Notes: a model not told the origin generated them from the letters alone. Positions 23,185-40,625 are shown, numbered from the whole stretch's first letter. The stretch is 40,970 bases of DNA, filler included, from an uncultured virus (IMG/VR IMGVR_UViG_2049941000_000602) (3 parts of one record of this genome joined end to end with filler, not necessarily neighbours in it); one strand, 5' to 3'. Numbers and translations are program-made.

Positions 23185-23767
23185 TGGTTGACCCGCAGTT
23201 CCTTCGTACACAGCGTTCCGCAGCACGGGCACTTCGCGTGGAGCCACGTGTACGTATGGCCGCCGAACTTCCCGCCACACCCGGTGGTAGACGTGCGCTC
23301 GCACTGGTCTGCCGGCAGGTTGAACTCGCACCCGCATCCCCTGCACACGAAACACATCCTGACAGGCTCCTTGGTGATTATGTATTCCAGCTTCTTGTCT
23401 TCGCCGAACGAGTCCATCTTTCCCGGCTCGACATTGGAGAACCAGTCCAGTATCTCGCGCATGTTCTTCTCGGCGTCCGTTTCCCAGTCTATCTGGAAGC
23501 TGTGGAACAGGCATTCAGTTTCCTTGCGCCAGTGGATGTGCGTGAGATAGTTGACATCCCCGGGTTGCTCCGAGCGGCCCCCGATACACACCACGATATG
23601 GTGCCCGGAACTGTCCNNNNNNNNNNGAACTTCCACGCCTTCCTGATGTACCACGGGAGAATCCCGGGGGTCACCGGGATTTCCTCGGCGTCCATGAGCT
23701 TGAGTGCCGGGAGCGCCTCGTGAACCTTGTCGAGGGCGTCGGTAAACTTATCTTCTTTCTCTGCCAT
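23181..23767 (-). CDS. hypothetical protein with C-terminal zinc ribbon (gapped)
   Basis: MAEKEDKF start at 23767; CRGC...CPCC; join across the gap is assumed. Confidence 0.6.
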
Positions 23768-23769
23768 GT

Positions 23770-24162
23770 CTACATTTCCTTTCCGATGATTTGGTTGAAC
23801 AACGTTTCTTTTCTCGTTCCGGCCGGAGGCATCCACTGCCACATTCGCTTTGCAATCTCGTCGGCGAGGTTCTTGTCCTTGAAGGCTACCTGGACCGAGT
23901 CCGGCGTTTCCCCGTCTATTATCCGGAAGCGGTCCTTAGGGACACCTAGGGCTACCGCGATTGCATCGGCAAGCCCCCGGGGACTCATGTTGACTGCCGG
24001 GATGTCGAAATTCCAGTCCCGCGTCATGTCCTTGGAATGCTTGGGTGCGCAGTCGTAATGGTACTGCGTTTCCTTGCGTGGAGGTCTAAAAACCTTCGCC
24101 AGGATTTTCCTGGCGAAGGCTATTACGATTGCACAGTAAACTGCTATCCGAATCGACCTCAT
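23770..24162 (-). CDS. AxY-FLR module family protein (leaderless)
   Basis: MRSIRIAVYCAIVIAFARKILAK; ATG 5 nt after TATATTTG. Confidence 0.8.
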   Translation of the reverse strand: MRSIRIAVYCAIVIAFARKILAKVFRPPRKETQYHYDCAPKHSKDMTRDWNFDIPAVNMSPRGLADAIAVALGVPKDRFRIIDGETPDSVQVAFKDKNLADEIAKRMWQWMPPAGTRKETLFNQIIGKEM

Positions 24163-24181
24163 CGACCCAAATATAGCAATT

Positions 24182-25032
24182 TTATTTTTGCTTCATCGGG
24201 AGTTCTCCCTCTTCTGCCTTGTATTTCTGCGTGGTTTTCCCCAGCTGGTCAAGTTTGTCTATCCTGCTGACGAATTCAGGGGACATGTCGTGGTCCATGA
24301 ATTCACGTCGGCCGCATTCGACGTACATTGTACGCAGCATACGCTTGCCCGGGCCGAACCGGTCGGCAACCATCCGGTATGCATCAAGCAAACCTGATTG
24401 CCTTGCCAGCTTTGCGGCCGCCAGGCAAGTTGGGGTTTTCGGGGAGGCAAGGACGAAGTCCGCAACACGGCGGAAATCATGGAACATCATGGACGCCGCG
24501 GCATCAAGATAACCTTCATCCAGGTCGGATTGGTTGCATCTCATATCGTACTGTTCCAGGATTGCCCTCAGTAGCTCGTTGACGAAGTACGGGAAATTCC
24601 TTGACTTCTTGTACTGCTTGAGCACCCTCTCGGAGCACATATGCTCGAGCTGTTCGGATACGGTCTCGTCGATGTCGGATTCCGACTGCTCGTCGAACCT
24701 CCTGTTCTGCGCCTGCACGAGGAAGTCCTTGTTGAGGAGCCCGTTCCTGTTAAGTTGGTCCGCACGCTCGAGCGAGATGTCTTCGCCGGCGTTGATGCGT
24801 TCCGTGATGGCGCGCTTCACCCTGTTGAGAATATGGCGCTTCCTGAACTTGTCGTCGACGAGGACGCTGTATGTGGATTCCGCCGGGTCGAGTATGAAGT
24901 CGACGAGGTATTTGTACATGTCCTCGTTCTCGGCGAACCTGCCGTTGTTGAGCGCGGGGAGAATGTATTTCTTGATGAACTCCTTCTTGGCTTCGGCCGG
25001 ATAATTCGGGGATATGTACTTGGCGGCATCGT
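24182..25032 (-). CDS. C-terminal part of the large 18435-20835 protein
   Basis: About 43 nt exact overlap encoding DAAKYISPNYPAEA. Confidence 0.8.
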
Positions 25033-25042
25033 NNNNNNNNNN

Positions 25043-25679
25043 ATACGATATGGACGACATGGCAAAGTCGCTCAAGAAACGCATCTACGAGTGGGCTACA
25101 GCGGTGGTCGACGTGCACAACTCCCCGGCATGCGACAACGCAATCCTCGTATCCAACGACAAGTTCGCCCCGGCATACATCAGGTTCGCCATCAAGCACG
25201 GCATACACTACATGCTCCGCGAATCTGCAGCGAACACCATCAAGCGTTATGCCGTATACAGCGGACGCATCGGCTTCACTGTCGAGATGGGCGGTATGGG
25301 ATTCGCCCCTGGGTTCAAGGACACCATAGAGAAGCAGACCGACTTCGTGTACAGGCTCCTGGCCGCGCTCGACGGCGAACCGACAACATCGTTCCTCTCG
25401 TCCAGTAGCGACCTGCACATCCCGCAGCAGTACAATATGTTCCCGCTGCATGCCCACTACCAGGGCATCGTGCGACACCAGTTCGCCCCGGGAGATTCCA
25501 TAAAGCAAGGCGATATCGTGTTCGAGATTCTTACCCCGAACACCACCGCCGTACTTGAAGAAATAACCGCTCCGTGCGACTGTATCCTGGCAGACTGCGA
25601 TGACAGGCTATGGTCTACGCCGGGCATGGAAGTATGCAGTGTCCAGCCCATCATTCCCAAGGAGATAGTAAATGGATAG
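25043..25679 (+). CDS. succinylglutamate desuccinylase/aspartoacylase (M14) family, C-terminal part
   Basis: VVDVHNS, GFTVEMGG, lipoyl-like tail PGDSIKQGD...EITAPCD. Confidence 0.75.
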
Positions 25680-25899
25680 GTTCACTTTCAAGCAGATTAT
25701 GATTCTCGTCTGTACGGTGGCGGGGCTGTTCCTCGTGTTCATCGGTATGATGGTGGGAAACATCAGCAGTGTAACTACCAGGGTATGCGAGGGCGATTCC
25801 CCGTGCAAGTCCTATACCGTGGAAGTAAGGAACGCGAACATCGCAGGCGACGCCCTGTCCGAACTTTCCGAACGCATAATCACTGGAATCAAGCAATAG
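25672..25899 (+). CDS. small membrane-anchored protein
   Basis: AAGGAG RBS; N-terminal hydrophobic helix. Confidence 0.7.
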   Translation: MDRFTFKQIMILVCTVAGLFLVFIGMMVGNISSVTTRVCEGDSPCKSYTVEVRNANIAGDALSELSERIITGIKQ

Positions 25900-25907
25900 T
25901 GACGTTC

Positions 25908-26333
25908 ATGCGCCCGGTCTACATGGCATTCTACCTCTCAATCGTCCTGGGATTCCTCAGGGCGATTTTCAGGAAAGCGCTCACATACAAGGCAGACTAC
26001 GACAAGACCGCAAAGTACTTCCTTATAGCCACTGATTACCACGACTCGTCAATATGCATCCTGCTAGGAAAGATAGCGGAACCGCCTGACTTCCGCGGGT
26101 GGCAAGAGCACCTGTGCAACAAGTTCGTGAACGAAAACGGATTCAGCGAAACACTCGGCACAGCGGTAGTGCAATGGGCGGACCTAGCAGGCATACCGAA
26201 CGAAGAAATCAACTCCCCTGAATCCCAGTATACCGACTGGATGAACGAGCGGCTTGAACGTGCTGCAATTAAGCTTGCCAGGGAATATCCGTGGTTCATA
26301 CCAACAATTTTCAACGACTCAGACTTTCCGTAG
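25908..26333 (+). CDS. AxY-FLR module family protein
   Basis: MRPVYMAFYLSIVLGFLRAIFRK. Confidence 0.8.
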   Translation: MRPVYMAFYLSIVLGFLRAIFRKALTYKADYDKTAKYFLIATDYHDSSICILLGKIAEPPDFRGWQEHLCNKFVNENGFSETLGTAVVQWADLAGIPNEEINSPESQYTDWMNERLERAAIKLAREYPWFIPTIFNDSDFP

Positions 26334-26337
26334 TAAG

Positions 26338-26751
26338 ATGCATAATTCCATCTATCGCGCATTCTATGTTCTTCTAGTAATCAGGTTCCTCCGGACTACT
26401 GTCAGGAAGCTGCTTGTACCGCACAGGAAATTCCGTAACAAATGCAAGTTCGGCCTGTACGCCGTGCCAAAAGGCGAACACGTCACGCTCCACTTCGCAA
26501 ACGTCTATGTGGATGACCCGAGTGACATGGACAACTCGACACTGTTCCATGACCTCGGCGTAACCATGAGCAGGTGCCACGTATTCGCCATAGCGGATGG
26601 AAACAACGAGTACCCGTTCCACCAATTCATTCAGCCAGACAAATACCAAGGCCAACTGTCAGTATCGCTTGATACGAAAACAGTCGTACATACGATAGAC
26701 CACATACTGTACGACTTTGTCGGGCCGAACGACTACGACTTTTTCTTTTAA
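26338..26751 (+). CDS. AxY-FLR module family protein
   Basis: MHNSIYRAFYVLLVIRFLRTTVRK. Confidence 0.8.
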   Translation: MHNSIYRAFYVLLVIRFLRTTVRKLLVPHRKFRNKCKFGLYAVPKGEHVTLHFANVYVDDPSDMDNSTLFHDLGVTMSRCHVFAIADGNNEYPFHQFIQPDKYQGQLSVSLDTKTVVHTIDHILYDFVGPNDYDFFF

Positions 26752-26758
26752 AGGAAAA

Positions 26759-26778
26759 CCCGGTACATCAGTACCGGG
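26759..26778. terminator. hairpin between convergent genes
   Basis: cccggtac-atca-gtaccggg with A/T-rich flanks. Confidence 0.7.
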
Positions 26779-26783
26779 ATTTC

Positions 26784-27092
26784 TTATCTAGTAACGGCCA
26801 CACGGTGTCTCCCGGGTGCTCCGGTTGACCACAGGTCAAACATTTTCCTGGCCAATGCGGCATCCTGGTGAAACGGCTTGACTACCGTATAATTGCCGCG
26901 TTCATCAGTACGGCGATGCAATGTTGCAATCGTCTTCGCCTTTCCGGCATATGTCATGTACTTATAGTACTCCTCGGCATGCTCCGGGGTATCCGATACG
27001 ATTAGTTTCGGAGTGTCAAACGTAGTCATGCCTATGCCAGGCATCACTTCAGTATCATCGAGTTCGGCAACAAGGAAATAATGGTCAGCCAT
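26784..27092 (-). CDS. hypothetical protein
   Basis: GGAG RBS, 102 aa. Confidence 0.7.
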   Translation of the reverse strand: MADHYFLVAELDDTEVMPGIGMTTFDTPKLIVSDTPEHAEEYYKYMTYAGKAKTIATLHRRTDERGNYTVVKPFHQDAALARKMFDLWSTGAPGRHRVAVTR

Positions 27093-27093
27093 A

Positions 27094-27553
27094 CTATTCT
27101 CCGCTTGTTTCGGATGTACCTAGATTCCATTCCTTGAGAGCAGCAAGCTTCTCGTCAAGTTTTGCCTTCTTCTTGTTGATTGGCTCAGTAACCCTGTTCA
27201 GTTCATCGTCCAGGTCTTCCTTCGCCCGTTCCAGGGAAGCAATGGCTGCGTCCCGGTTGGCCGCATAGAGTTCGTTGTTGGTCATCCCCAGGTACTTCAC
27301 CGGAATCTTCACGGTGCACTTCTCGATGCCGTGACGGAAGCTGTATGCATGCTGGCAGTAGATTGTCTCGTGCCCTGCATTGTACTGCCACTGGTGATTG
27401 GCCACGTCCTTCACCCTCTGGGCTACAGAGTTGGTCGCATCTGCCGGAACCACGTCCAGCATCTGGCAACGAGCCATGATTTCAAGCACGTCCCTGATAC
27501 GGTCAACCAGGACCTTCTTCGCCTCAAGATACGCTTTCCATCGGCAATCCGGC
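27094..27553 (-). CDS. hypothetical protein with coiled-coil-like tail, 5' partial
   Basis: Open frame from the gap. Confidence 0.65.
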
Positions 27554-27563
27554 NNNNNNNNNN

Positions 27564-27862
27564 GGGTCCTCGATGTCATCGGTCGAGCCGAAGATGAGTC
27601 TTGCTATCCCGGGGACATAGTACACGTCGCAGCCGCCGCGGTGCACGAAATAATCGCGTATAAGCCCGTAGACCTTGCCGGGCCATTCCTTTGTGTAGTA
27701 CATCTCGAGGGCATCCGACATCCCCATCTTCTCCAGCACGGCCTTCATGTACCTCCGGGCGTCGCCCTCGGATGCCTCGAAGAGTTGCCGGTAAGCCCGG
27801 GTAACCGCCTCGAGCATTGTCCGGGATATCCCGATTTTACCTATTTCAGTCACGAATTTCAT
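27564..27862 (-). CDS. EA-motif protein, 3' partial (possibly the N-terminus of 21178-22394)
   Basis: MLEAVTRAYRQLFEAS; ATAAACT upstream. Confidence 0.7.
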
Positions 27863-27873
27863 ACGATACCGGT

Positions 27874-27900
27874 AGTTTATACAAGAAATTGCTATATTTG
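27874..27900. promoter_or_regulatory. back-to-back class II (-) and class I (+) promoters
   Basis: agtttat 27874-27880; gctatatttg 27891-27900. Confidence 0.7.
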
Positions 27901-27946
27901 GGGTATACACCGATTTCGAACAAGCATAAATATATAGGAACCAATC

Positions 27947-28363
27947 ATGAAACATACATACGTAGTAGGAACATTCGTCGACTCGATGACCGGCATGGAA
28001 GCCGATTACTTCAGTGACCCGTATGACGTCATCGAAGCCGAAAGCAAAGAAGAAGCGTGCGGCATCTACAACAAGAAGCACAAGTGCGACTACTTCTCCG
28101 GGAGGGTAATGGCGGAAATCCAGGACGACAGGATTGCCGACCTGGACAAGTACGCCCGTCTCGCCGATGTTGAAAGGGCTATCAGCGAAACCGCCACAGC
28201 GATGCAAAAGCAGGCTGACTCCAACAACCAGCTATTCGAATGCAGCGGAGCCTGCACAGTTGGAGATGTGCTTGAAGCTAAGCCAAAATTCACTAGAATC
28301 TGCGGATATCTACTCAAAGGACAGACGTTTAGTAAACAAGAAATCCCATCGAGGAACACATGA
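27947..28363 (+). CDS. hypothetical protein
   Basis: AGGA RBS, 138 aa. Confidence 0.75.
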   Translation: MKHTYVVGTFVDSMTGMEADYFSDPYDVIEAESKEEACGIYNKKHKCDYFSGRVMAEIQDDRIADLDKYARLADVERAISETATAMQKQADSNNQLFECSGACTVGDVLEAKPKFTRICGYLLKGQTFSKQEIPSRNT

Positions 28364-28551
28364 AAATCCTTTTAATTTCAGGAACCCACGGTAACGAACA
28401 GGCGGCAGTCTATGCAACCTCGCATGCACTGCGCAGGTTCAAAATTGATTACCACCAATCCGAGGTCGAATACGTTACATTGAACATCCCGGGGCTTAAC
28501 CAGAACACCCGGGAAATGCCAAAGCCGAAGGCGCCAACCATGGACTTCAAC
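28360..28551 (+). CDS. M14 aspartoacylase-like, N-terminal part
   Basis: LLISGTHGNE zinc motif and MDFN at the gap. Confidence 0.75.
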
Positions 28552-28566
28552 NNNNNNNNNNATACC

Positions 28567-28764
28567 CTACAGCAGCCTGAGTAGCTCCTTCCCGAGTTCC
28601 TCCCGGGATTTCCTCTCGGCATCCAGCTTTGCCTGGAGCTGCTCTATCGTGTGGATAAGCTCTATGCGCGACATCAGGTCGAGGTCGTCCCGCGTCAGCA
28701 CGTCAGGGGTCATGGTTAGCTTTTCGCCGAGCCATTTCCCGATGGAAGGCAGGCCGAAAATCAT
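28567..28764 (-). CDS. small coiled-coil-like protein
   Basis: AAGGA RBS, 65 aa. Confidence 0.65.
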   Translation of the reverse strand: MIFGLPSIGKWLGEKLTMTPDVLTRDDLDLMSRIELIHTIEQLQAKLDAERKSREELGKELLRLL

Positions 28765-28859
28765 GTTCCTTAAATCCTTCGGGGCACCCGGTTCCCGGAT
28801 GCCCCAACAATGTGATGTATGTTTATGCCGTCAAAATGCCGGAGAAACTTACAAAAAGC

Positions 28860-29123
28860 TTACATATTAGGGGTTTTGATGAATTTCCGCACGCTGTGCA
28901 GTAGTTCATCCACTGTTCCACGGTCATAAATCGATAAGATACGTGGACTTTCGATGTTGATTGGTTCGTACTTTGGTTCCCCGTCGGTTATCTTCAGGTA
29001 TGCCTCGCTCCAGTTCTCGGCTATGAGTTCCGCCTTCGCCTGTTTCAGTCTCGACAGGGAAACCGATGTAGCCAGTCGAACCGACAGATGGCGCTGCGGC
29101 AGCTCGATGTACAGGCACATCTT
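28860..29123 (-). CDS. 5' partial protein resembling the body of 22391-22726
   Basis: LSVRLATS...LIAENWSEAYLKI versus ISVRIHTS...MIEHEWQDEVLSI. Confidence 0.6.
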   Translation of the reverse strand, partial: KMCLYIELPQRHLSVRLATSVSLSRLKQAKAELIAENWSEAYLKITDGEPKYEPINIESPRILSIYDRGTVDELLHSVRKFIKTPNM

Positions 29124-29133
29124 NNNNNNNNNN

Positions 29134-29725
29134 TTGGGAATGGCTGCGGACACGAACTCTATCAGCCCGCCGAGCTCCCTGTATGCCTCAGCCGAGTGCG
29201 CGGTGTCCAGGCTGTACCCGGCAATATTGCAGCGGACGTTGCCTGACTGCTTCCTGGTGACGATGCGGCGGTCGGCCATGACCATCCCGGCGTCTACATA
29301 TATCTTCCTGGCGCTTACCGCCCATTCGCCTATGCGGTTCCTCTTGAACATGTGCACGGTCGACAGCTCGAGCATCTTCCCGGATATGGCGACGTCGACT
29401 ACGTAGTCGTGGTCCTCGCCTATCCCGTTGAACTTCGACAGGGTGTGCCCCTTGATTTTGGAGCACAGGGCGAGAGCCTTGTCTAGCGACCTGGCGTCCT
29501 CCTTGAACATGTCCGGGGTAATCTTCTCCCTGGCCGCCTGTGCCAGGCGGTTAGCCACCTCGAGAACGGCGGCGTTAGACGGTGGAGTCCACTCGGACAT
29601 CTTCTTCACCATGTCGACCAGTTCCCGGTCGGCGCCGGGGGCCTTCGCGGTCTTCCTCAGTTTTATCTTGAGTATTCACGTCGGCCGCCTTCNNNNNNNN
29701 NNTTCTTCGGCTTATTGTCGTCCAT
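29134..29725 (-). CDS. hypothetical protein, gapped, apparent 1-nt frameshift near 29675
   Basis: Class I promoter and GGAG RBS before ATG 29725. Confidence 0.55.
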
Positions 29726-29739
29726 ATATTTCTCCGATA

Positions 29740-29775
29740 CAAATATAGCAAAAGTGACGTTTTTTGCTATATTTG
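29740..29775. promoter_or_regulatory. divergent class I promoters
   Basis: caaatatagcaaaa ... ttttgctatatttg. Confidence 0.8.
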
Positions 29776-29793
29776 GAACAAGAGGAACCCAAT

Positions 29794-30621
29794 ATGGATA
29801 TTACAGACAAGAATTTCAAGGTCATCATAGGCAAGATGCGCGAATCCGAAACGTCAGACGTCGCTTACCATTGCAACAACGGGAGCTACTGCGGGCAGGC
29901 GAGCATCTCCATGCAGATTGACGACTACCGCAAGCGCCTCAGGGACAGGAACGATAACATGGGCATGCTCAGGACGATGAACTACCTTCTCGCCGGCGCG
30001 AAGGACGAGTGCTCGAGCAAGAAAGCCTTGCAGAATTTAGTGGCCACCGAGCTCAATACCAACAGGTCATTCATGAAGCAGTACGCGGCGAACATGAGGA
30101 CGCTGAAGTACCGCCGCTGGATGGTTGGGTCGGCAAACTCCCTGATTTCCCAGATGTTCGCCCACAAGCAATGGGGCGGCAGCGGTCCGAAGTACCCGGT
30201 GTTCGCCACGTGCCGAGACGCATGGTACCGGCTTTCCGACGACATCACGGTGTACTCCATGCTTGCCGCCGCCAGCGCCAGGCTGGATGCCGGGGACAAC
30301 GAAGCCGAATACAACAACCTGCTGGACTGCTCGGTCGACGTGTTCCGTGCCAACGTGGCACTCTTCAGGAAGCCCGAATCGGACAAGGTGCTCGACTACA
30401 GGATTCACGGGAGGGCTATCGTGTCCTTCGGCCTCACCGACGGGTGCGTGCCAATCATGCTGTCCTTGGACTGCACGTTCGGCATGGACGGCACAATCGA
30501 GGGCCTGGACAGGAAGCTCGGATACGACATCGTCGCCTTCCGCCCGTTCGAGGAGAAGACCGTGACGAGGATGCCGCGCCTCACAAGAATTGAAGCAATC
30601 AAGAAAGGAGCCGAACAATGA
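29794..30621 (+). CDS. hypothetical protein (tandem paralog 1)
   Basis: GAGGA RBS, 275 aa. Confidence 0.75.
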   Translation: MDITDKNFKVIIGKMRESETSDVAYHCNNGSYCGQASISMQIDDYRKRLRDRNDNMGMLRTMNYLLAGAKDECSSKKALQNLVATELNTNRSFMKQYAANMRTLKYRRWMVGSANSLISQMFAHKQWGGSGPKYPVFATCRDAWYRLSDDITVYSMLAAASARLDAGDNEAEYNNLLDCSVDVFRANVALFRKPESDKVLDYRIHGRAIVSFGLTDGCVPIMLSLDCTFGMDGTIEGLDRKLGYDIVAFRPFEEKTVTRMPRLTRIEAIKKGAEQ

Positions 30622-31437
30622 ATTTCAGCCCGAATGAACTGGTAGATACCGTCGACCAAATACTGCTGGAGACCTTGCCGTTCCCGTCATGGAAGAAAAT
30701 GACTCAGTGGGAAATCGAGGCAAGGCGCCACAAGCTCGGCATGGACCGTGCCTCGCAGTACAACGTGCTGCGCCTCCTGAACTCCGTCAAGAGGACTGTC
30801 CGCCACGTCAACGGCATCACCCCGGCGACGCTCAGGTCAGCGCACGTCACGGACGAGCTTGACAAGGTCGACACCGCAGAACGCCGGAAAGCCAAGGCAT
30901 TCATCTCCGAACTCAACGCCACGCTCAGGGAACTGAATGCCGCGTATACGGTAGTGACGAGCTCGTACCTGCTCGCCCGGGACATCATGCACTACTCTTC
31001 CGGTAAAAAGCCGGTGATGCTCAAGAACGAACACGGGAGATGGCATACCACCGCCGGGATGTACCGGGCGTATCTCGGGATGCTCGACGAGATGAAGAAA
31101 AAGAACTCGCCAAAGGGCATGCTTCCCGAACAGATGGAAGACAACGCCAGGCTGTCCGCCAAGGAGTTCCGCAGGAACATCACCCATTTCAACCCGGAAG
31201 AGGAGTACGAGTCGTACAAGGTCACCGGCAAGGCCATCGTCTATGCCGGGGTTGCCGCGGGCGGCTGGCCGGTACTGGTCTCNNNNNNNNNNCGACCTTG
31301 ACGGCCAGGTGGTCGACCTCCCTGAAGACTTCAAGGTGCTCGCCTTCAAGCCCAAGATGGCGACAATTACAAAGGCGTTCATGCAGCCGAAGAAGACTGA
31401 AGAGAAGTCCGAGGAAGGACCCTCCAAAGAAGTCTAG
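30618..31437 (+). CDS. hypothetical protein (tandem paralog 2, gapped)
   Basis: YKVTGKAIV...LAFKP versus YRIHGRAIV...VAFRP in paralog 1. Confidence 0.7.
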
Positions 31438-31615
31438 CGCTACGCCATATAAGCGCGAAATCCATCGCCTCGGCGATGGATTTTTTGTTGTGCTTCAATT
31501 TCCTGGTGTATTTCTTCCTGTCCCGTACCACGCGGGTACGCAGGGTCGTCCCGTTGGACGTCCCGGCAATCCGTTCCTGACGGAGCCGGGCGCTTTCTTT
31601 TGCTTTTTGTGCCAT
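31379..31615 (-). CDS. small basic protein, candidate ArfA/BrfA-like ribosome rescue factor
   Basis: GGAGG RBS; LRTRVVRDRKKYTRKLKH; reads through the hairpin. Confidence 0.5.
   Translation of the reverse strand: MAQKAKESARLRQERIAGTSNGTTLRTRVVRDRKKYTRKLKHNKKSIAEAMDFALIWRSARLLWRVLPRTSLQSSSAA
31458..31489 (+). terminator. intrinsic terminator, lying inside the minus-strand ORF
   Basis: aaatccatcgc-ctcg-gcgatggattt followed by tttgtt. Confidence 0.8.
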
Positions 31616-31634
31616 ATGGCCTCCGTTTTCGTTC

Positions 31635-31659
31635 AGTTTATGACAATATAGCATAAACT
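31635..31659. promoter_or_regulatory. divergent ATAAACT motifs plus a class I-like GCTATATTG on the minus strand
   Basis: agtttatgacaatatagcataaact. Confidence 0.6.
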
Positions 31660-31679
31660 ACCGATTGCAGGAGACCGAT

Positions 31680-32053
31680 ATGAACAGAAACCTTCTCGAA
31701 GCACTCATGACCGGATACAGGGCGATTCTTGAAGCCCAGGATGCGGGCATGAAGAAACTGGAGGCTTACCTCAACAAGAAGCGCGATACCGACATCAAGG
31801 ACGATGACGGTTACCTTACCACGGCGAAGAAGGCATACAACTATTTCGAGAACGCCCGCATGGTCGCCGACCACTGGGCCGTCCACTTCACAAGCGAGGA
31901 AGTCTATCCGAAAATCAAGAAGTCCGGGTTCTCCCACGGTACATCCGACCTAGACCACCTGGCATACACCTCGCAGTGTCCGGGAGGACGCACCAGGCAG
32001 GGATGGCTGTTCGCGTTGCCGGTCGATACAGCCTACTTGAAGCACTACGACAT
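31680..32053 (+). CDS. EA-motif protein, 3' partial
   Basis: AGGAG RBS; LLEALMTGYRAILEAQ; VHFTS...IKKSGF. Confidence 0.7.
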
Positions 32054-32063
32054 NNNNNNNNNN

Positions 32064-32314
32064 AGCTTTACCGAGAGCGGCGCGAAATTCTTACGAGACT
32101 ATTTGAAGTCCAGCCCCACACGGCAACATGGGATGGATTATTCAGCAAGCTCACTGAAATAAACAGCCGTCTTTCCATAGTCAGGTTCAATTACGATTTC
32201 ACCGAACAGTACAACGATATGGTCTTGACCACACGGCTATCCCGGATATTCCTGGTGCTATCCGGCATCATGTTCGCCGGATATATCCTACTAAAGGACC
32301 TTGGCCTCATATGA
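32064..32314 (+). CDS. 5' partial protein with a C-terminal hydrophobic helix
   Basis: IFLVLSGIMFAGYILL; ATGA overlap. Confidence 0.55.
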
Positions 32315-32757
32315 CGCTACAGCAATTTCAGCACATAATCTCCGAGAAGTTTCCCAACGCTGTATTTGAAACCTCCCGGTATCTCCCGGGAGTCACCTAT
32401 GTATCATTCGGAAAAAGCGCGTGCATAGCGACACTATCGTTCAAGGACAGGATGTGGGGTCTGACCGGGATTTTCATGCCTAACCCGAACGACCGGATTC
32501 CGCATATATCGTCCAACAGGCAGAAAGACCTGAAACTCATGGTGAACCTTCTTGGCGAATACGACTATCAGGTTCACCCGAATGCCGACCGAACAGTACG
32601 CCTGGCAACACCGATAGCGATGTGGATTGACGAGCTCGACCCGGAGGATACACCATGGAACGACAACAATGAATTGGCGGACTCCTACCTGGAACTAAAG
32701 GAACGCGGATTAACCGCACCCATCAGAGTAAAATTGGACTTTTTAAATAAAAAATAA
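32311..32757 (+). CDS. hypothetical protein
   Basis: 148 aa. Confidence 0.75.
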   Translation: MTLQQFQHIISEKFPNAVFETSRYLPGVTYVSFGKSACIATLSFKDRMWGLTGIFMPNPNDRIPHISSNRQKDLKLMVNLLGEYDYQVHPNADRTVRLATPIAMWIDELDPEDTPWNDNNELADSYLELKERGLTAPIRVKLDFLNKK

Positions 32758-32781
32758 CAATCTCCAACCAAAAGGAAAATC

Positions 32782-33306
32782 ATGATAGATGCTGACCGAC
32801 TAATAGAGAATATCGACGAATACCATACCGCATGCGCGAAGAAAAAGCTAGAACAGAGCAAGACGGCGGTCGAACAGTTCGACTGTGCAATCAAGGTGTT
32901 CGAAGCTCATCGAGCTGACATTGAAAACGCCGGAAAGGTATTGAAACACTGGGGAATGCGTGTATTCCCGGTAAAGATATATCAACAGTACATGTATGGC
33001 GACCAGCCACAACGTGCCGAATTCAGGTATAACGAACTGGACGGAGGAAGGCTTGTATGCGGATATACGACCGGTATTGGCTCCACAATAGGATGGCTGT
33101 CAGATGGTTCAATTAAGATAGGATATAATTGGTCGATGAAGATAGATACTGTCCGCGAAGGCATTCTGCATGTACTTAATGACAAGGTTGTTGAAGGAAG
33201 CGATATCACCTTCAAACAACTCGTGGATGCATTGGTCAAGCTGGCCACTCTTTACCCGGAAGCGGAAAAGGCCTTTATCAACTATTTCGAAACGCTTGGA
33301 AAGTAG
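32782..33306 (+). CDS. hypothetical protein flanked by duplicated gene tails
   Basis: AAGGA RBS, 174 aa, visibly more AT-rich. Confidence 0.75.
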   Translation: MIDADRLIENIDEYHTACAKKKLEQSKTAVEQFDCAIKVFEAHRADIENAGKVLKHWGMRVFPVKIYQQYMYGDQPQRAEFRYNELDGGRLVCGYTTGIGSTIGWLSDGSIKIGYNWSMKIDTVREGILHVLNDKVVEGSDITFKQLVDALVKLATLYPEAEKAFINYFETLGK

Positions 33307-33326
33307 GAACCGTAATTCCCACTGAG

Positions 33327-33382
33327 CCTGGAACTAAAGGAACGCGGGTTGACCGCACCGGTCAAGGTCAAACTGAACTTTT
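33327..33382 (+). repeat. diverged copy of the 3' end of gene 32311-32757
   Basis: 47/56 identical to 32688-32743; no N gap. Confidence 0.9.
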
Positions 33383-33392
33383 AAGGTTACAT

Positions 33393-33566
33393 ATGGATAT
33401 AATCGGCAACATGCTGCATATGCAGGAAGAACTCAACCCAAAAGAACGGAAACCCGGACCTCCTGTGCACTGGTCGTACTATGTCGACCCGAAAGACCCT
33501 GACTACATAGATGCATGCAAACGAATGGATTCGCTAATTGCCGAAAGCCAATGGGATTGCATATAG
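33393..33566 (+). CDS. 57-aa hypothetical protein
   Basis: TAAGG RBS; MDIIGNMLHMQEEL...WDCI; precedes the terminator. Confidence 0.6.
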   Translation: MDIIGNMLHMQEELNPKERKPGPPVHWSYYVDPKDPDYIDACKRMDSLIAESQWDCI

Positions 33567-33600
33567 CAAATGCAGCTTGGACTTTTATATACAAATAATA

Positions 33601-33627
33601 AAAGCCCCGGGAAATTCCCGGGGCTTT
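33601..33627. terminator. bidirectional terminator
   Basis: aaagccccggga-aat-tcccggggcttt between convergent operons. Confidence 0.85.
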
Positions 33628-33654
33628 CTCTTTCATGACTATAGAGCACCGCCC

Positions 33655-34863
33655 TTATTCACACATTTCCATTGTGCCGGGCGCAAAAATCTCGCTCAGT
33701 ATGGCATTCCCTTCTGTGTCGATTCCGTATATGAAGTTCCACCACTGCGCATCTACCCCGGTGCTTCTCCAGTCGCTGGCGCACCCGTAACTGCTCTGGT
33801 TTTCGGTATTGTGCTCGACCGCTTCCGGGGACATCTCCTTCACCCGCTTCCTGACCGACTCGTATACCGCGGTATCAATCTTTACCTTCCCTATAGTGAG
33901 GCCGCCTTCCTTCTTGATGACCAGGGTAGACCAGTCAAAATACGGGCGGTTTACCGAGAGTGCTTCTATGGTGCTCATGTGGGCACGCGATTCAAACTTG
34001 CTGACAATATCGAATATGCTGTCCCTGTCCTTGAGGCCCCTCTTCCAGTCTAGGTTAATGTACGCCTCCAGCGTGGCAAGCGACTCGGAAACGTGCAGCG
34101 GGTCCCTCGCACATTCCTCTATCGCCTTGCCGAACAGGTCGGTGATTCGGGTAAACCTTTCTATGAACATGGCCTTCCGTTCCCTTGCCTTGTCGGTACG
34201 GTGCTCGTACGCCTCGAGCAGGTCGGCGACTATACGGTTCACGACGCTGATGTCGGGGGATTTGCCGTCCATGCCGAGCCTTCCCCTGGCTTCGCCGATT
34301 TCCACCCATTGCCCGCCCCGCACGTAGTCGTCCTCAATCGTATAGCCCAATTTCACCGTTACCTTGTCGTTGTAGAACGATATCAGCTCGCTCCTGTATT
34401 CATGGTTACGGATTTCGTCCGGTAGGTCCGCGATGTTGGCTACGCTTATGGCCCCGTTGATATCGGAACGCACCGCGTCGAACCACGGCTGCTCCAGGCA
34501 TTCCATCTTGAGCCGGAGGAACCTGGAGTATTCCTTCACCGCATCAGACTTGGTCTTCATCTTAGTTGTGCGTTCCTCGATTATCTCGTCGGTCAGCACG
34601 GCGCCGGTATAGGTGATTTCACCGAGATGCCACCCCTTGGATGCAAGGTAGCGTTTGGCGGACTCTATTGCCGTTTCGATTTTTTCATCTTCGACAAAAT
34701 GTGCCTGTCCGGACCCGTCGCACCAACTGATGGCGAAGCCAAACCGGCAGAAGGACACGTTGTCTCCAGGGCAATGCTTATTATCAACGTCATTGTAAAT
34801 CTTTGCCCTGGCCTCGATTAGGTCATGCGGCATCATGCCGGCGAATGTCGAGAACTTTCTCAT
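33655..34863 (-). CDS. hypothetical protein
   Basis: 402 aa, AAGGAG RBS. Confidence 0.8.
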   Translation of the reverse strand: MRKFSTFAGMMPHDLIEARAKIYNDVDNKHCPGDNVSFCRFGFAISWCDGSGQAHFVEDEKIETAIESAKRYLASKGWHLGEITYTGAVLTDEIIEERTTKMKTKSDAVKEYSRFLRLKMECLEQPWFDAVRSDINGAISVANIADLPDEIRNHEYRSELISFYNDKVTVKLGYTIEDDYVRGGQWVEIGEARGRLGMDGKSPDISVVNRIVADLLEAYEHRTDKARERKAMFIERFTRITDLFGKAIEECARDPLHVSESLATLEAYINLDWKRGLKDRDSIFDIVSKFESRAHMSTIEALSVNRPYFDWSTLVIKKEGGLTIGKVKIDTAVYESVRKRVKEMSPEAVEHNTENQSSYGCASDWRSTGVDAQWWNFIYGIDTEGNAILSEIFAPGTMEMCE

Positions 34864-34873
34864 TTGTGCTCCT

Positions 34874-35323
34874 TTATACTTTATTTAAGCGGCATGCTTG
34901 ATGAAACTGTTTAACCACGGCGTCATACCCGTAGGCAGCCAAGTCGTTGCCTAGTTTCTTGTTGAATAGCTTGATTTGTTTCCTCGCGATAACCAGCTGC
35001 TTCAGGAAATTGATGACCCGAAGTAGCGGGACACGCATGCTTTCCAGGCTGGTAAACCATTCGCCGATATGGACAGCGCCGCAGTCGCTATCATCTTCCC
35101 GGAAATCGCCATCAGAATCCAGCTTCATCTTAAACTCTTCGTTCAGGTATATGCTATCCGGCCCACCCTTGTCATTGTCGTCATAGCTGAACACCGTAAC
35201 TCCCGGCAGGTCCTTCATTACTACGGAATAGTCGGTTATTTCGTGATAATACTTATTGCGGGCGTGAACAATCTTCAATTCAGGGAATTGCGCAACGAAT
35301 TCAGCAATCGAATCAATGGTCAT
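34874..35323 (-). CDS. hypothetical protein
   Basis: 149 aa, TAAGGAG RBS. Confidence 0.8.
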   Translation of the reverse strand: MTIDSIAEFVAQFPELKIVHARNKYYHEITDYSVVMKDLPGVTVFSYDDNDKGGPDSIYLNEEFKMKLDSDGDFREDDSDCGAVHIGEWFTSLESMRVPLLRVINFLKQLVIARKQIKLFNKKLGNDLAAYGYDAVVKQFHQACRLNKV

Positions 35324-35325
35324 GC

Positions 35326-35889
35326 TTACTCCTTATCCGGCGTCCATTTGATTTTCGTGCAAAGCGCACGGTAGCTAGCGTTAATATCGGCCACATTCCC
35401 GGCCAAGTCTTTCATCATGTCCTTCTTAGTTACCTTAATGACATCCTCGGCATATAAGGTAAGATACACTATGCTGTCCTTGGCTTTTGCATTGGTTATT
35501 CTTGCGTCTCCATCTCCAGTCTCAACCATAATATCATAGTGAGTCGGGAACACGAGCTGGCCAGGACACAGTGCCGTATTAGTTGCAGTCCCCCTATCTG
35601 GCTCATCTATGGTGACAACATGGATATAAGTACCATCGGCAATAAACAGCCATTTTCCGGCAAACTTCTTTTTAGCGTCGTCAATCAGCTGCTTGCGTTC
35701 TTTCTTAGCTTTCCGGCGAGCCAGTCGTTCCCGCCTGTATTCCGGGTCGAACCGTTCCATCTTGCGCTGTTCCAGTACCCTGCGTCGTTCGATAAGCTTC
35801 GAATGCTCCTTGCCTATCGACTCGATGTAACCGTCCAGTGTCTGCAGCTCGCGGTCGAAGTCCGCTTCTGTCTTCAGGTGTTTTGCCAT
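35326..35889 (-). CDS. hypothetical protein with N-terminal coiled-coil-like region
   Basis: 187 aa, GGAG RBS. Confidence 0.8.
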   Translation of the reverse strand: MAKHLKTEADFDRELQTLDGYIESIGKEHSKLIERRRVLEQRKMERFDPEYRRERLARRKAKKERKQLIDDAKKKFAGKWLFIADGTYIHVVTIDEPDRGTATNTALCPGQLVFPTHYDIMVETGDGDARITNAKAKDSIVYLTLYAEDVIKVTKKDMMKDLAGNVADINASYRALCTKIKWTPDKE

Positions 35890-35900
35890 ATGTTCTCCAG

Positions 35901-36251
35901 TTAATGTCGATTACCAGTCACTGAATTTCCGGCACTAAAGTCTATCCCGTCCACCGTACCGATTAGGTAATACCGCACACTCAGCAGGATTTCTTCCGGT
36001 GACTTGCCGAAGTCAAACAATTCGCTGAACATGTCAGATATGATACGGGCAAATCCCCGTATCGCAACCTTCTCTTCGTCAGGCTTCAGAATCGCGATGG
36101 TTCCATCAATGAGCCCGTTGAAAAATCCAACAGCGAATTCCAATATCTCCTGCGATGTCTTTCCTTCCGACTTCATACAGTCATATTGGTCAAGCATATC
36201 CTCGGCAAATTCTCGGATGGTATTGGGTAATACTGAGTTAGCCATTTGCAT
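35901..36251 (-). CDS. hypothetical protein with an internal duplication
   Basis: GKTSQEIL...GLIDG and GKSPEEIL...GTVDG. Confidence 0.75.
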   Translation of the reverse strand: MQMANSVLPNTIREFAEDMLDQYDCMKSEGKTSQEILEFAVGFFNGLIDGTIAILKPDEEKVAIRGFARIISDMFSELFDFGKSPEEILLSVRYYLIGTVDGIDFSAGNSVTGNRH

Positions 36252-36693
36252 TCTCCTCTGTTCTATCAGTTACGTTTTCTATAATTTTCTTGAGAGTATC
36301 CACTGTAGCCTGTTCTTTAGCAATCTGCTCGTTGACACGCTCGATAACCTTGTTAGCCTCGTCCACAATAAAGGGCGGCTCGACTACCATCCAGCCGTCG
36401 TCCATGATTCCAATCAGCACTACGGTCATTGGACCATAGTATGCACTGCGGCACTTGATGTCAAACGCAGCCTTTGCCCGCATCCCGTATGCCATGTACT
36501 GCCTAATCCTTGGGGGGATGAACCGGTGATACTTGTAGGCGTCCGGCCCGTCATAGAACCCGTACTTGCACTCTATCACTTCGTCCACCAGAAACAACTG
36601 CTCACGCTTCTCGTTGTAAATCCACTTCCCGGCATACTTACGGTTTGCCTCGTCGCGCCACTTCTCGTACTGCTCTTTTCCCGGTTTCTCCAT
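36238..36693 (-). CDS. hypothetical protein
   Basis: 151 aa, GAGG RBS. Confidence 0.75.
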   Translation of the reverse strand: MEKPGKEQYEKWRDEANRKYAGKWIYNEKREQLFLVDEVIECKYGFYDGPDAYKYHRFIPPRIRQYMAYGMRAKAAFDIKCRSAYYGPMTVVLIGIMDDGWMVVEPPFIVDEANKVIERVNEQIAKEQATVDTLKKIIENVTDRTEENANG

Positions 36694-36694
36694 A

Positions 36695-37579
36695 CTAATA
36701 CCTCTTTATTAACAGCGAATCGTCCGACCACCCACCGGTCAAGCGACCGTCGGCGTGGAGTACGAAGTTACGGATGTACTGGTGCTCGCTCTCGTATTTC
36801 TGCTCAAGCACGGCATCTACCTCGCGGTATTCCACATTCAAGTCCGCGGATTCCACATACCCGTGCATGCACCGGCACTTGGTAGATTCCTTGCGTCCGT
36901 CAATCATCGTGCCGAATATATCGCGAAACCCGGCATTATCCTGGTCGAAATAGTTACGACGGAACAGCACGCTGGAAAACTCATTCTCGGAGGCCATGTC
37001 GATATACCTGTGTATCCATTCGGGGTCAACGGAATGTCCGAGCGTACAGTTCAGCCTGAACCGGCGATACGTATTATGAAGCATATTAAGCAGCCTGGCC
37101 ACTTCCTGGATTCCCGGGATGAACGCGTCATGGAACACGGCACGGTTCCCGTCGTCGTCCCAGTGATGCCTGCTCACGTTGATGTATTTAAGCTTCTCGG
37201 TATTATCGAGGTACATCATGTTCTCCGATAGATACCTGCCGTTCGTAGTGATGGCATAGTAGTCCACGCCACTGCTCTCAAGAGCATTCAGATAGTTGAA
37301 CGTGTAAAAGTGCGGGACGGACAGCGGTTCGCCTCCGGTAATCGACACTCGGTCGACTGCTCCCTGCTTTACCAGCTCGGTTAGCACTTCCTCGAACACT
37401 TTCGGGTTCAGGAACGTATGCCCCCTGGACGAAGCCGAGCAGAAATCGCAGCATGCGTTGCACTGGTCTGTAACCTCGACATACAGGGTGCGCTTGTCGG
37501 AGTTCGACGAGCAGCAAGACCCTGTGTATACCGGGTACTCCTTGCCGAACAGCATAATGGGCACTGTTTTAACTTTCAT
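36695..37579 (-). CDS. radical SAM protein (leaderless)
   Basis: CNACCDFC (CxxxCxxC), SITGGEP, ITTNG, INVSRH. Confidence 0.92.
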   Translation of the reverse strand: MKVKTVPIMLFGKEYPVYTGSCCSSNSDKRTLYVEVTDQCNACCDFCSASSRGHTFLNPKVFEEVLTELVKQGAVDRVSITGGEPLSVPHFYTFNYLNALESSGVDYYAITTNGRYLSENMMYLDNTEKLKYINVSRHHWDDDGNRAVFHDAFIPGIQEVARLLNMLHNTYRRFRLNCTLGHSVDPEWIHRYIDMASENEFSSVLFRRNYFDQDNAGFRDIFGTMIDGRKESTKCRCMHGYVESADLNVEYREVDAVLEQKYESEHQYIRNFVLHADGRLTGGWSDDSLLIKRY

Positions 37580-37634
37580 GACCCAAATATAGCAATTTCC
37601 CGCCGAGCCTGAGCATTTTTGCTATATTTGGGAC
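37580..37634. promoter_or_regulatory. divergent class I promoters, both leaderless
   Basis: Each TATATTTG lies 4 nt from an ATG (37579-, 37635+). Confidence 0.85.
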
Positions 37635-38403
37635 ATGAAGAAACAGGAACTGTTCACAGCACCCCCAGAAATAGCCGCCCGTCTTCTCCGGTACAAGCAT
37701 ACCGAGGACGACGACCCGACACTCTACTACAACCCGGGCGGAAAGAGGGACCGCATNNNNNNNNNNNNNNNNNNNNNNNNNNNNNNNNNNNNNNNNNNNN
37801 NNNNNNNNNNNNNNNNNNNNNNNNNNNNNNNNNNNNNNNNNNNAGGAGCTCCAGGGAAAGCTCATCCGCGTAGATGACGACAACCCGTCCTTCGACGAGG
37901 TGGAACACCTGGCCGAGGCAATCGCACAACAGTGCAGGACCCCTGATTCCGCGCCGGTATTCCAGCTGACCAAGGAACAGATATACGCCGAAATCGTCCA
38001 GGAACTCACCCCGCTTGTCACGGAGGAACTCATAGGCAAGTACCTCTGCCACAAGTCAGGGGCCTACGAATTCACATACTTCAAGTGCGACCGTATAGAC
38101 GTCCGCGTAGGCATGTACAACAGACTGGAAATCCTTGCCGGGGGCCGGGGATTCACCATCGACGCCACCCCGGTATCCTCCAGCTTCCGCGGGCAAGTAT
38201 TTCCGACATTCAAGGTGTCCCTCCTCGACGTGAAGGACCTGTTGCTCACCGGTAAGTACGAGTACATGAAGAAGTGGCTCTACGTACTCTCCGAAGACGA
38301 ATACAGGAAGCAGTTCGAAAAGGCCGTGGCCGGAATCGCGAAAAACATCGGCATAGTCCAAGAAGAAACAGAACAGGACGGGCAAACCCATTTTGGCGCA
38401 TGA
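37635..38403 (+). CDS. hypothetical protein(s), gapped
   Basis: Open frames 37635-37756 and 37844-38403. Confidence 0.6.
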
Positions 38404-38456
38404 ATCCGCCGGGACGGCTCGTCCATTCTATCGTCGTACCGCCCGTTCACTATACC

Positions 38457-39194
38457 TTAATCGAATCCCAATTCCTTCCATCCGTCCACCGGGATATCAT
38501 CGCTATCGCCGCAATCATAGAAGCACCCCAGAACCGTACTAGGAGGATTGTCCTGCGTTGTCATCTGCAGCCACAGGGCATATGCGCCCGTCGTCACGCT
38601 CGTGCAGAATGAGAAGGCATCCCCAACATCAACCATCTTCCCGGTATTGAATAGAGGGATTGCGCTCAAGCTTGAACAATAGGAACACATGGAATTTATT
38701 GTAGTCACGGAACCGGTGTCGAATAGTGCAATTTCGCGCAACTTGGAATCCGACATAAAGAGGGTGCTCATATTAGTGACACCGGTTGTATTAGCACCAA
38801 GTACTGCCAGCAATTCCTTATGCGACGTGGATGTGGCGCTGTTTGTAGCCAATAGGCCACCCCAATTAGTATTTTCGTATGTCAAGTCCCATACGTTGGG
38901 CGATTCCGATACCTGCGTTGCATTACCTTTATGGAATGCCGGCGTATGCCCATCACTGTATTGCAGCCTGATGGTATACGGAGGCAGTCCCAGCGGATTG
39001 AGCGGGTCAACCGGTTCGGGCTCAGGCTCCGGTTCTGGCTCAGGTTCCGGTTCAGGTTCCGGCTCGGGTTCAGGCTCAATTTTACCATCCGCCGACTGTT
39101 CCCGTTTATTGCGTTCGATTTCGGCGATGATTTCGTCCGGCTGCATCAGGTTTCCGTCTGCGTCGAACGCGAATGCATTCAAAAAGCTTGCCAT
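38457..39194 (-). CDS. PE-linker protein with BspA/DUF285-like surface repeats
   Basis: (EP)x10 linker; repeats NTTGVTNMSTLF, DTGSVTTINSMC, NTGKMVDVGDAF. Confidence 0.75.
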   Translation of the reverse strand: MASFLNAFAFDADGNLMQPDEIIAEIERNKREQSADGKIEPEPEPEPEPEPEPEPEPEPEPVDPLNPLGLPPYTIRLQYSDGHTPAFHKGNATQVSESPNVWDLTYENTNWGGLLATNSATSTSHKELLAVLGANTTGVTNMSTLFMSDSKLREIALFDTGSVTTINSMCSYCSSLSAIPLFNTGKMVDVGDAFSFCTSVTTGAYALWLQMTTQDNPPSTVLGCFYDCGDSDDIPVDGWKELGFD

Positions 39195-39220
39195 ACAGTA
39201 ATTCCTTCAATTGAAACGAA

Positions 39221-39284
39221 GTTTATGACGGACGGATAGCGCAGCAACCCTGATTGCCAGGAAAATTACTATATTTGGTGCATG
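39221..39284. promoter_or_regulatory. class II ATAAAC (-) and class I ACTATATTTG (+)
   Basis: gtttat 39221-39226; tatatttg 39270-39277, ATG 39282. Confidence 0.65.
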
Positions 39285-39324
39285 CGCATCAAGCACGAAG
39301 AAACAGACCAGGAAGGACCATCCC

Positions 39325-39597: not shown

Positions 39598-39598
39598 A

Positions 39599-40294: not shown

Positions 40295-40330
40295 ATTAAC
40301 TCTACAGTGCCACATGCCTGGTCATTTTCC

Positions 40331-40356
40331 TGCCCTTCGCCAGAAGGGCAATTTTC
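40331..40356 (+). terminator. probable terminator
   Basis: tgcccttc-gcca-gaagggca followed by attttc. Confidence 0.65.
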
Positions 40357-40602: not shown

Positions 40603-40625
40603 TCTCGTCACTCTATACCCACAAA

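Follow-up and report, generated by a model that had tools for sequence, protein, structure and literature searches.

We analyzed a stretch of DNA from an uncultured virus (IMG/VR IMGVR_UViG_2049941000_000602), 40,970 nucleotides (nt) long and composed of three parts of one record joined end to end with filler (hereafter, the window), and found on its minus strand a small open reading frame (ORF; positions 31379 to 31615) that may well be a member of a new family comparable in function to ArfA and BrfA, the release-factor-dependent ribosome rescue factors made from mRNAs that lack a stop codon (nonstop mRNAs). The family exhibits a conserved core, a covarying in-frame hairpin on the sense strand, junk tails behind the hairpin, and a gene-specific promoter motif, and it is shared with Fibrobacter, which possesses transfer-messenger RNA (tmRNA) and release factors 1 and 2 (RF1 and RF2). 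Judging by the sequences, the ORF with its hairpin is not a chance feature, since relatives also have the ORF and the hairpin and likewise lose conservation behind the latter.

A small basic gene with a hairpin inside its reading frame

The minus-strand ORF encodes a basic protein of 78 amino acids (aa), which begins MAQKAKESARLRQERIAGTSNGTTLRTRVVRDRKKYTRKLKHNKKSIAEAMDFALIW, and direct reading of the sequence places a Shine-Dalgarno element, GGAGG (31620 to 31624, minus strand), 4 nt upstream of its ATG; AAGGAGG occupies the equivalent site in the Fibrobacter copies. Thus, the 78-aa basic ORF with a strong ribosome-binding site that an earlier reading of the window (the original prediction) had described was confirmed. 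An alternative upstream ATG at 31654 would lengthen the protein to 91 aa; this is probably not the start codon in use, because it sits within a promoter-like motif.

That motif, TGCTATATT (31645 to 31653, minus strand), lies about 30 nt upstream of the start codon. The window contains 14 exact copies of it and, with no more than one mismatch allowed, 22 copies versus 4.96 ± 1.98 expected, a number reached by 0 of 100 shuffles. From this enrichment, the small gene appears to be driven by one of the standard promoters of this genome. Two stacked promoter-like motifs had been proposed here; the TGCTATATT element stood up, whereas a simple sigma-70 scan found no promoter at the small ORF. Sites of the motif (e.g., 1738 to 1746, 4823 to 4831, 6980 to 6988, 29765 to 29773, 31645 to 31653, and 37620 to 37628) lie mostly just upstream of ORF starts. 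A similar motif, GCTATATTTG, is found upstream of the Fibrobacter homologs, and TGCTATATT also resembles TAnnTTTG, a promoter element of Bacteroidota. TGCTATATT probably serves both the phage and its host as a standard promoter.

The conserved core spans residues 1 to 44 (31484 to 31615, minus strand), is near-invariant in 27 close homologs, and ends in RKLKHNK, with K41-H42 (codons at 31490 to 31495, minus strand) placed in a basic stretch as predicted and kept in 60 of 62 hairpin-type cluster representatives. Nine K or R residues fall within residues 31 to 45 (RDRKKYTRKLKHNKK), and residues 1 to 55 have an isoelectric point of 11.3 with 16 K and R residues in total. An AlphaFold2 model predicted a charged helix at residues 9 to 18 (predicted local distance difference test score, 78.8; overall predicted template modeling score, 0.29), and a Foldseek search of this model against the PDB gave no match at E ≤ 0.001.

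Codons 45 to 53, which encode the peptide KSIAEAMDF, form a stem-loop inside the ORF (31457 to 31484), whose pairing covaries in 68 distinct copies. On the minus strand, codons K45 to F53 make a stem of 11 Watson-Crick pairs with a 4-nt loop (31458 to 31483), as had been described, and the plus-strand hairpin consists of 12 pairs, one of them G-T, around a 4-nt loop, with a T-run behind it; terminator scoring in the window picked out the hairpin on the plus strand only. The ORF continues for 25 further codons as a nonconserved tail with a weak U-rich tract (31379 to 31456, minus strand), and its first in-frame stop (31379 to 31381) lies 76 nt past the stem. The predicted 59-nt overlap of this tail with the 3′ end of the convergent gene (31243 to 31437, plus strand) was also verified, as the stop lies at 31379 to 31381 and that gene ends at 31437. 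Runs of masked N (e.g., 31284 to 31293) break several ORFs of the window, including this convergent gene, and 30618 to 31437 is probably one gene split by the mask.

A conserved core with two types of end

Searching with the first 47 residues returned 27 proteins of 54 to 83 aa with 71 to 96% identity, on contigs of up to 462 kb. In the alignment of these close homologs, residues 1 to 53 were invariant or 90% conserved, and past F53 no conservation was seen, the ends varying in both length and sequence. The wider family was collected by comparing the core profile, A2, with 1.84 billion cluster representatives (50% identity clusters), which gave 117 matches at E ≤ 0.001. Of these, 66 reached E ≤ 1e-10. 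P0224 and P0259 were set aside as repeat-protein artifacts; the family comprises about 115 such clusters.

Among the 116 classified representatives, 62 carried the peptide KS.A.A.DF 15 to 16 aa after RTR and directly behind KHK(K), with unrelated tails of 12 to 83 aa beyond it (hairpin type), and 54 lacked this peptide, most of them ending 18 to 22 aa after RTR in a short acidic end. These stop-terminated relatives have no hairpin, the next gene follows directly behind, and all of those seen were on phage contigs (e.g., L018 to L032). Because they end 18 to 22 aa after RTR, a product truncated at the hairpin would be of about the same length as the complete stop-type protein. A check attached to the original prediction, whether homologs lose conservation after KH and keep the hairpin, describes the pattern seen in the 27 close homologs. 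The recurrence in relatives of a conserved KH core, an in-frame hairpin, and a nonconserved tail strongly supported the regulatory half of that prediction, namely, the nonstop layout.

At the DNA level, 10 metagenome loci and one viral locus kept the hairpin. The stem of L010 differs in sequence (peptide KSPATAEDF); one of its pairs is compensated and another is mismatched. In L011 and P0028 the hairpin is missing and a stop occurs at about 51 to 54 aa.

The best library matches of the family were Pfam DUF7230 (PF23876) and PHROGs 2701, 18092, and 6310, all below threshold. They match across the RVV..K.KY.RK.KH stretch and are families of unknown function, with profiles of just 42 to 46 aa. 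DUF7230 scored 22.4 bits (E 1.3e-4) against residues 28 to 45 only of the window protein, short of its cut-off of 27, and matched 51 of 83 family members at E ≤ 0.01 (best E, 1.3e-5). The nearest clusters in the ESM Atlas were hypothetical proteins and DUF7230, the nearest DUF7230-bearing cluster being 78% viral, and a literature search on DUF7230 found no paper.

The hairpin as an RNA element of the sense strand

Two residues of the hairpin peptide vary, and their combinations are of nine types (I-M, L-G, L-R, F-G, F-E, F-R, P-G, V-A, and I-I). With the stem register taken into account, these residues covary as base pairs in 63 of 63 cases, versus a mean of 38.6 (standard deviation, 3.0; maximum, 51) in 10,000 shuffles; since the sequences are related, this shuffle figure overstates independence, and all nine pair types fit regardless. 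A G·U pair is forced in 41 of the 63 peptide pairs. In a gapless alignment of 69 DNA copies (68 distinct; 12 pairs, 816 cells), standard pairs occupied 96.7% of the 816 cells, versus 40 to 61% when the partners were slid by 1 to 3 columns. Pair 13-26 was C-G in 44 copies, A-U in 10, U-G in 10, and U-A in 3, and pair 9-30, formed by two third-codon positions, was G-U in 29, A-U in 28, and G-C in 9. Third-codon positions in the stem were invariant or nearly so; the two in the loop varied. Pair 14-25 was U·G in 53 of the 68 copies, and because U·G becomes an A·C mismatch on the antisense strand, the stem in most copies is complete only in the transcript of the small gene itself. These data indicated that the hairpin is selected as RNA on the small gene's own strand.

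Behind the stem lies a U-rich tract (e.g., CCTTTTTTAT), the first 12 nt of which contain a median of 6 T across 65 Fibrobacter loci and of 5 T across 13 phage-type loci, versus 4 T in the window. The first in-frame stop past the stem was found at 10 to 268 nt in the host loci (median, 61), at 31 to 109 nt in the phage-type loci, and at 76 nt in the window, and none of the 65 Fibrobacter and 13 phage-type loci scored had a stop before the hairpin. Intrinsic terminators release RNA about 7 to 9 nt past the stem. Therefore, with release at that distance, all of these mRNAs would be stopless, narrowly so in three host loci.

The loci L001/L009, L015, L016, and L017 retain the hairpin although their downstream gene is on the same strand, and the hairpin is therefore not merely the terminator of a convergent gene. 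In these loci the hairpin is followed by TTTCGCTTTT, the TTGCTATATTT promoter motif of the next gene, and the ATG of that gene, and the recurrent FAIF of the tails is the next gene's promoter read in frame. A tail that reads through the promoter of the next gene is intergenic DNA. The caveat in the original prediction that the hairpin was already explained as a plus-strand terminator thus fails for the family, in view of the same-strand neighbors and the sense-only U·G pairs. The window lineage has a convergent neighbor and a stem made up entirely of Watson-Crick pairs, with an A-run ahead of it; in that lineage, both strands are served by the hairpin, the plus strand strongly and the minus strand less convincingly. 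In L015 (1380 to 1410), L016, and L017, the next gene starts 6 to 7 nt after a TATATTT motif (e.g., GCTATATTTGTGGCATGA), which suggests leaderless mRNAs for the genes after the small ORF, and the chance stop of the small ORF is a TGA overlapping the ATG of the next gene.

The family in Fibrobacter and in huge phages

A scan of one genome per prokaryotic species yielded 67 loci, every one of them in a record of Fibrobacter or Fibrobacterales (F. intestinalis ATCC 43854 among them). In each locus the frame passes from the core into the hairpin region. The pattern fits 65 of the loci; of the other two, L083 carries an additional loop codon, and L085 departs from the pattern after KSLAD, its frame ending near the end of the contig. 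The family was present in 88 of 101 genomes of the G003 genus in the GTDB (one copy in 82, two in 6), in 8 of 19 genomes of the genus of G002, and in 55 of 201 genomes sampled across the phylum; most of the sampled genomes are metagenome bins, so missing copies may be gaps. The L103 copy is flanked by genes for a DNA methylase, GTP cyclohydrolase I, and a glutamine amidotransferase class-II protein, and the sole recognized neighbor at L051 is a PP-loop protein. The context of these two host copies is chromosomal and not that of a prophage; L103, the one locus whose neighbors are informative, has housekeeping genes beside it.

The viral matches were on records of 23 to 424 kb, several of them of 170 to 416 kb, and one record of 415,750 bp has terminal repeats and is rated 100% complete. 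In one huge viral record, a homolog with 52% identity to the 898-aa protein of the window (18512 to 21208) lies a few kilobases from a copy of the small gene. A tree of the core (39 columns; host rows L052, L056, and L079 disregarded, L063 left out) grouped the 51 host rows in one supported clade (98/87) with the phage forms outside it; the tree is unrooted with respect to the direction of transfer.

Nearly all ORFs of the window lack a Pfam or PHROG match, and 15 of 17 other large ORFs tested lack a Pfam match. Recognizable products are a protein with a homing-endonuclease-like N terminus (PHROG 655; 4872 to 6446), a membrane protein resembling the major facilitator superfamily (15487 to 16380), and a radical SAM protein (36695 to 37579). 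Scans of the window for tRNA, tmRNA, and Rfam families gave nothing, megablast of 29000 to 34000 against the phage collection found no match, and the neighboring protein (29764 to 30621) had no match in five viral records. Most likely, the window is part of a huge phage.

The host of this phage is probably Fibrobacter, because, when 20 kb of the window was compared with 101 Fibrobacter genomes, the small gene was the only real similarity at the DNA level, because the phage promoter motif resembles the GCTATATTTG of the host copies, and because the runs that contain the sequence come from sheep gut. In that BLAST comparison, which covered 20971 to 40970, the small gene matched at 68 to 77% identity, and no spacer-like perfect short matches were found. 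Two further stretches of the window were noted. A simple GGTTC/GGCTC repeat at 39020 to 39075, a Pro-Glu type linker in the minus-strand ORF 38457 to 39194, matches many Fibrobacter genomes as low-complexity sequence only, and 222 nt at 21330 to 21551, inside the ORF 20796 to 22394, have 70% identity to a single Fibrobacter genome (G187:C60); apart from this stretch, the small gene, and the repeat, nothing in the compared part resembled the genus at the DNA level. Two sheep-gut metatranscriptome runs, both from one study, gave contigs that match the first part of the divergent neighbor (ATG at 31677) at 99% or more. They span 31679 to 31760 only, ending at 31679 and 31692, within the neighboring gene and outside the small ORF; contigs of this kind can prove neither a transcript start or end nor a lack of expression.

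Translation rescue in the host

A tmRNA above the Rfam cut-off was found in 22 of 26 Fibrobacter genomes, and the RF-1 domain occurred in all 26, usually three times. G003 encodes RF1 as well as RF2 with the SPF motif, the listed frame of RF2 (TTG start) being without the normal N terminus. ArfA above the cut-off was found in none of five Fibrobacter genomes. Judging by these gene contents, Fibrobacter supplies the trans-translation and the class I release factors that the design needs. Five phage records had no tmRNA above the cut-off and no RF-1 domain; the phage copy would therefore depend on host factors.

Proposed mechanism and alternative explanations

We infer, as the reading that we favor at slightly better than even odds, a mechanism in which a small basic protein, predicted to bind ribosomes and belonging to a family common to Fibrobacter chromosomes and huge phages, would be made from nonstop mRNA, as transcription from the gene's own promoter would stop, or the RNA would be cut, at the in-frame hairpin before any stop codon. 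While the tmRNA-SmpB of the host is working, the product of about 55 aa would be tagged and degraded; when trans-translation is saturated or disabled, for example during infection, the protein would build up, and its K/R-rich KH tail would enter the empty mRNA channel of stalled ribosomes and recruit a host release factor, by which the peptide would be freed. Phages could plausibly use such a factor when infection yields many truncated mRNAs, and from the stop-terminated forms it would seem that the protein also serves phages outside the control of the tmRNA gate.

Several observations weigh against this proposal. In about half of the family the ORF ends at an ordinary stop without any hairpin, and the KH is missing from some of these members; the protein can therefore function without tmRNA control. 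In the window, the tract behind the stem on the minus strand is weak (just 4 T in 12 nt, in agreement with an earlier caveat that few U residues follow the hairpin), and minus-strand termination there may therefore be inefficient. Fibrobacter also has a third RF-1-domain protein, which contains GGQ and looks like ArfB (163 aa in G003; L110, 482 to 973). The N terminus of the small protein is predicted to be a charged helix, unlike the hydrophobic, RF2-activating minidomain described for ArfA in the available part of PMC5378476. Searches for homology added to these points. Pfam ArfA (PF03889) did not match the window protein at E ≤ 10. Three family profiles (A1, A2, and A3) compared with PDB sequences, which should include the BrfA chain of 6SZS (named in the available part of a review) and which constituted the comparison with BrfA, retrieved no ArfA or BrfA chain at E ≤ 10. 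Neither A3 nor A2 picked out arfA on the Escherichia coli K-12 chromosome. With hhalign, the probability against an ArfA alignment was 3.9% (P 0.011), that alignment being narrow (enterobacterial sequences only, at least 82% identity, from the best 120 matches), and the hidden Markov model (HMM) of ArfA gave the window protein 2.8 bits, a score reached by 599 of 5,000 shuffles. The profile comparison suggested along with the original prediction thus returned no significant similarity by hhalign, HMM, or PDB profiles, and the claim of homology was not supported: on present sequence comparisons, homology to ArfA or BrfA is not demonstrable, and the protein is not classed as ArfA.

These negative comparisons also bear on an explanation that we consider unlikely but credible, in which the protein has another ribosome- or RNA-binding function and its level is tied to tmRNA through the nonstop layout, with no recruitment of a release factor. 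Blocking or modulating trans-translation, protecting idle ribosomes, and signaling translation stress are roles that the protein might then have. The layout tells how the level of the protein would be set and not how the protein acts, no homology to ArfA or BrfA was found, the N terminus differs from that of ArfA, and the stop-terminated phage forms point to a protein that is useful without tmRNA control. Set against this, arfA and brfA are, as far as the available parts of PMC8012679 and PMC6881298 go, the only two described genes with this layout, and both encode rescue factors; moreover, the basic KH tail, at an ArfA-like position, would fit binding in the mRNA channel.

It is rather improbable that the gene is an ordinary small basic one, with a terminator that lies incidentally over its 3′ end, a stop supplied by read-through or late termination, and a tail that is tolerated. 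Three Fibrobacter loci do have a stop as close as 10 nt behind the stem, and the post-stem tract of the window is weak, but in all of the loci scored (65 of Fibrobacter and 13 of the phage type) the hairpin comes before the first stop, and the stops lie in unrelated sequence, the promoter of the next gene included, whereas a stop that is needed should have been fixed by selection beside the core, as it is in the stop-terminated relatives. Still less probable is a cis-acting leader peptide, whereby a ribosome crossing the hairpin would prevent termination and so control read-through into downstream genes. The ORF does cross a terminator-like hairpin, and in L103 GTP cyclohydrolase I lies behind it on the same strand, but the 45-aa core is common to phages and hosts and also occurs without the hairpin, and the downstream genes differ and have their own promoter or, as in the window, are convergent. 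Finally, the notion that the hairpin is a plus-strand terminator only and the minus-strand ORF a chance frame, for which the plus-strand T-run and the strand of the terminator score in the window speak, is already refuted by the 117 cluster representatives, promoter motif, and ribosome-binding site of the ORF and by a hairpin that stays with the ORF whatever its neighbors and is sense specific in 53 of 68 copies.

Possible significance

Release-factor-dependent rescue through ArfA, BrfA, and ArfT is known from narrow bacterial groups, and many bacteria may hold unidentified rescue factors beyond the reach of sequence similarity, according to the available parts of PMC6881298 and PMC8012679. 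A 2024 survey, on our reading of the columns of its table, lists 0 arfA in 1,956 Fibrobacterota-Chlorobiota-Bacteroidota genomes (PMC11633108). The candidate family described here was recognized by its regulatory anatomy and not by homology, and it is a single-copy gene in most Fibrobacter genomes, in a group for which that survey lists no arfA. We tentatively raise the possibility, without calling it probable, that the family is a further, independently evolved lineage of release-factor-dependent rescue factors, with a tmRNA-gated back-up in Fibrobacter and copies in huge phages. If so, it would be the first such lineage in viruses and also the first in bacteria other than Proteobacteria and Bacillus; outside subscription-only papers, our literature searches turned up no account of such a factor in phages or in Fibrobacter. 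The copies on phage genomes of 170 to 416 kb would make ribosome rescue a process that viruses manipulate: they would keep ribosomes cycling under a flood of truncated mRNAs or with trans-translation disabled, and the stop-terminated phage versions would be deregulated, always-on forms. A terminator inside a short conserved ORF followed by a junk tail could then serve as a signature for locating rescue factors in other phyla.

Comparison with ArfA, BrfA, and ArfT

NCBIfam and Pfam scans gave no informative match and nothing relevant to ArfT, PF03889 found nothing in the viral record of L001, and no ArfA was among the nearest ESM Atlas clusters. Rows that did appear in the profile searches were taken as chance, namely, 60S L4 (E 0.36) and Byr2 (E 1.3) in the PDB and, for A2, four matches in E. 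coli that look like chance, the best of which is antisense to pdeG and contains a stop.

A local resemblance to ArfA was nevertheless observed. By BLASTP as a single comparison, residues 25 to 50 of the window protein aligned with ArfA 25 to 53 (11 of 29 identical; E 0.006), the family HMM scored ArfA at 6.5 bits, which 25 of 5,000 composition-preserving shuffles reached, and the single match of the DUF7230 model in the E. coli chromosome fell inside arfA (12.6 bits; E 0.96). The stretch aligned with ArfA reads R.RV...KK[gap]Y.RK.KH, and the ArfA residues concerned belong to its A-site mid-region and its mRNA-tunnel tail, as described in the available part of PMC5378476. On these alignments, the resemblance may reflect remote homology, or the two proteins may have converged on one binding site. 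The KGKGS/GKGS insert of ArfA is absent, and the alignment puts a 3-residue gap there, consistent with an earlier caveat on this motif.

The two proteins are alike in general design. ArfA (E. coli YhdL) is likewise small and basic, and its K/R-rich stretch ends in KH at a nearly equal distance from the N terminus (K44-H45 versus K41-H42 here). In arfA, as here, a hairpin lies in the ORF a few codons past the KH, with a dispensable tail behind it, and ArfA is functional when truncated at Asn47 and not at Met40 (available parts of PMC8012679 and PMC5378476); the truncated product expected here would be of about 55 aa. The geometry of the locus is the same as well, since arfA (L012, 4432 to 4650) overlaps the end of the convergent mscL by 4 nt. 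The 3′ part of E. coli arfA is annotated as an arfA-derived small RNA. The two differ in that the hairpin here resembles an intrinsic terminator whereas that of ArfA is an RNase III site, and in their hosts, which are beta- and gammaproteobacteria for ArfA and Fibrobacter and phages for the present family.

ArfT of Francisella, set beside the family by description only, is a small basic release-factor-dependent factor of about 40 aa; it comes from a widespread repeat family (PMC6514570), and the available parts of the sources describe no nonstop layout for it. BrfA (Bacillus subtilis YqkK), which unlike the present family is restricted to Bacillus, has a basic C-terminal region with KH, is controlled by trans-translation, and carries a Rho-independent terminator inside its coding region before the stop (PMC6881298 and PMC8012679, in their available parts). 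These same sources present arfA and brfA as the described genes that have a conserved terminator or processing hairpin in a short ORF and whose product appears only upon failure of trans-translation. The stem, the U-rich tract, and the stop beyond the stem that we found in the Fibrobacter and phage genes make up the same design as that given for brfA in the available part of PMC6881298.

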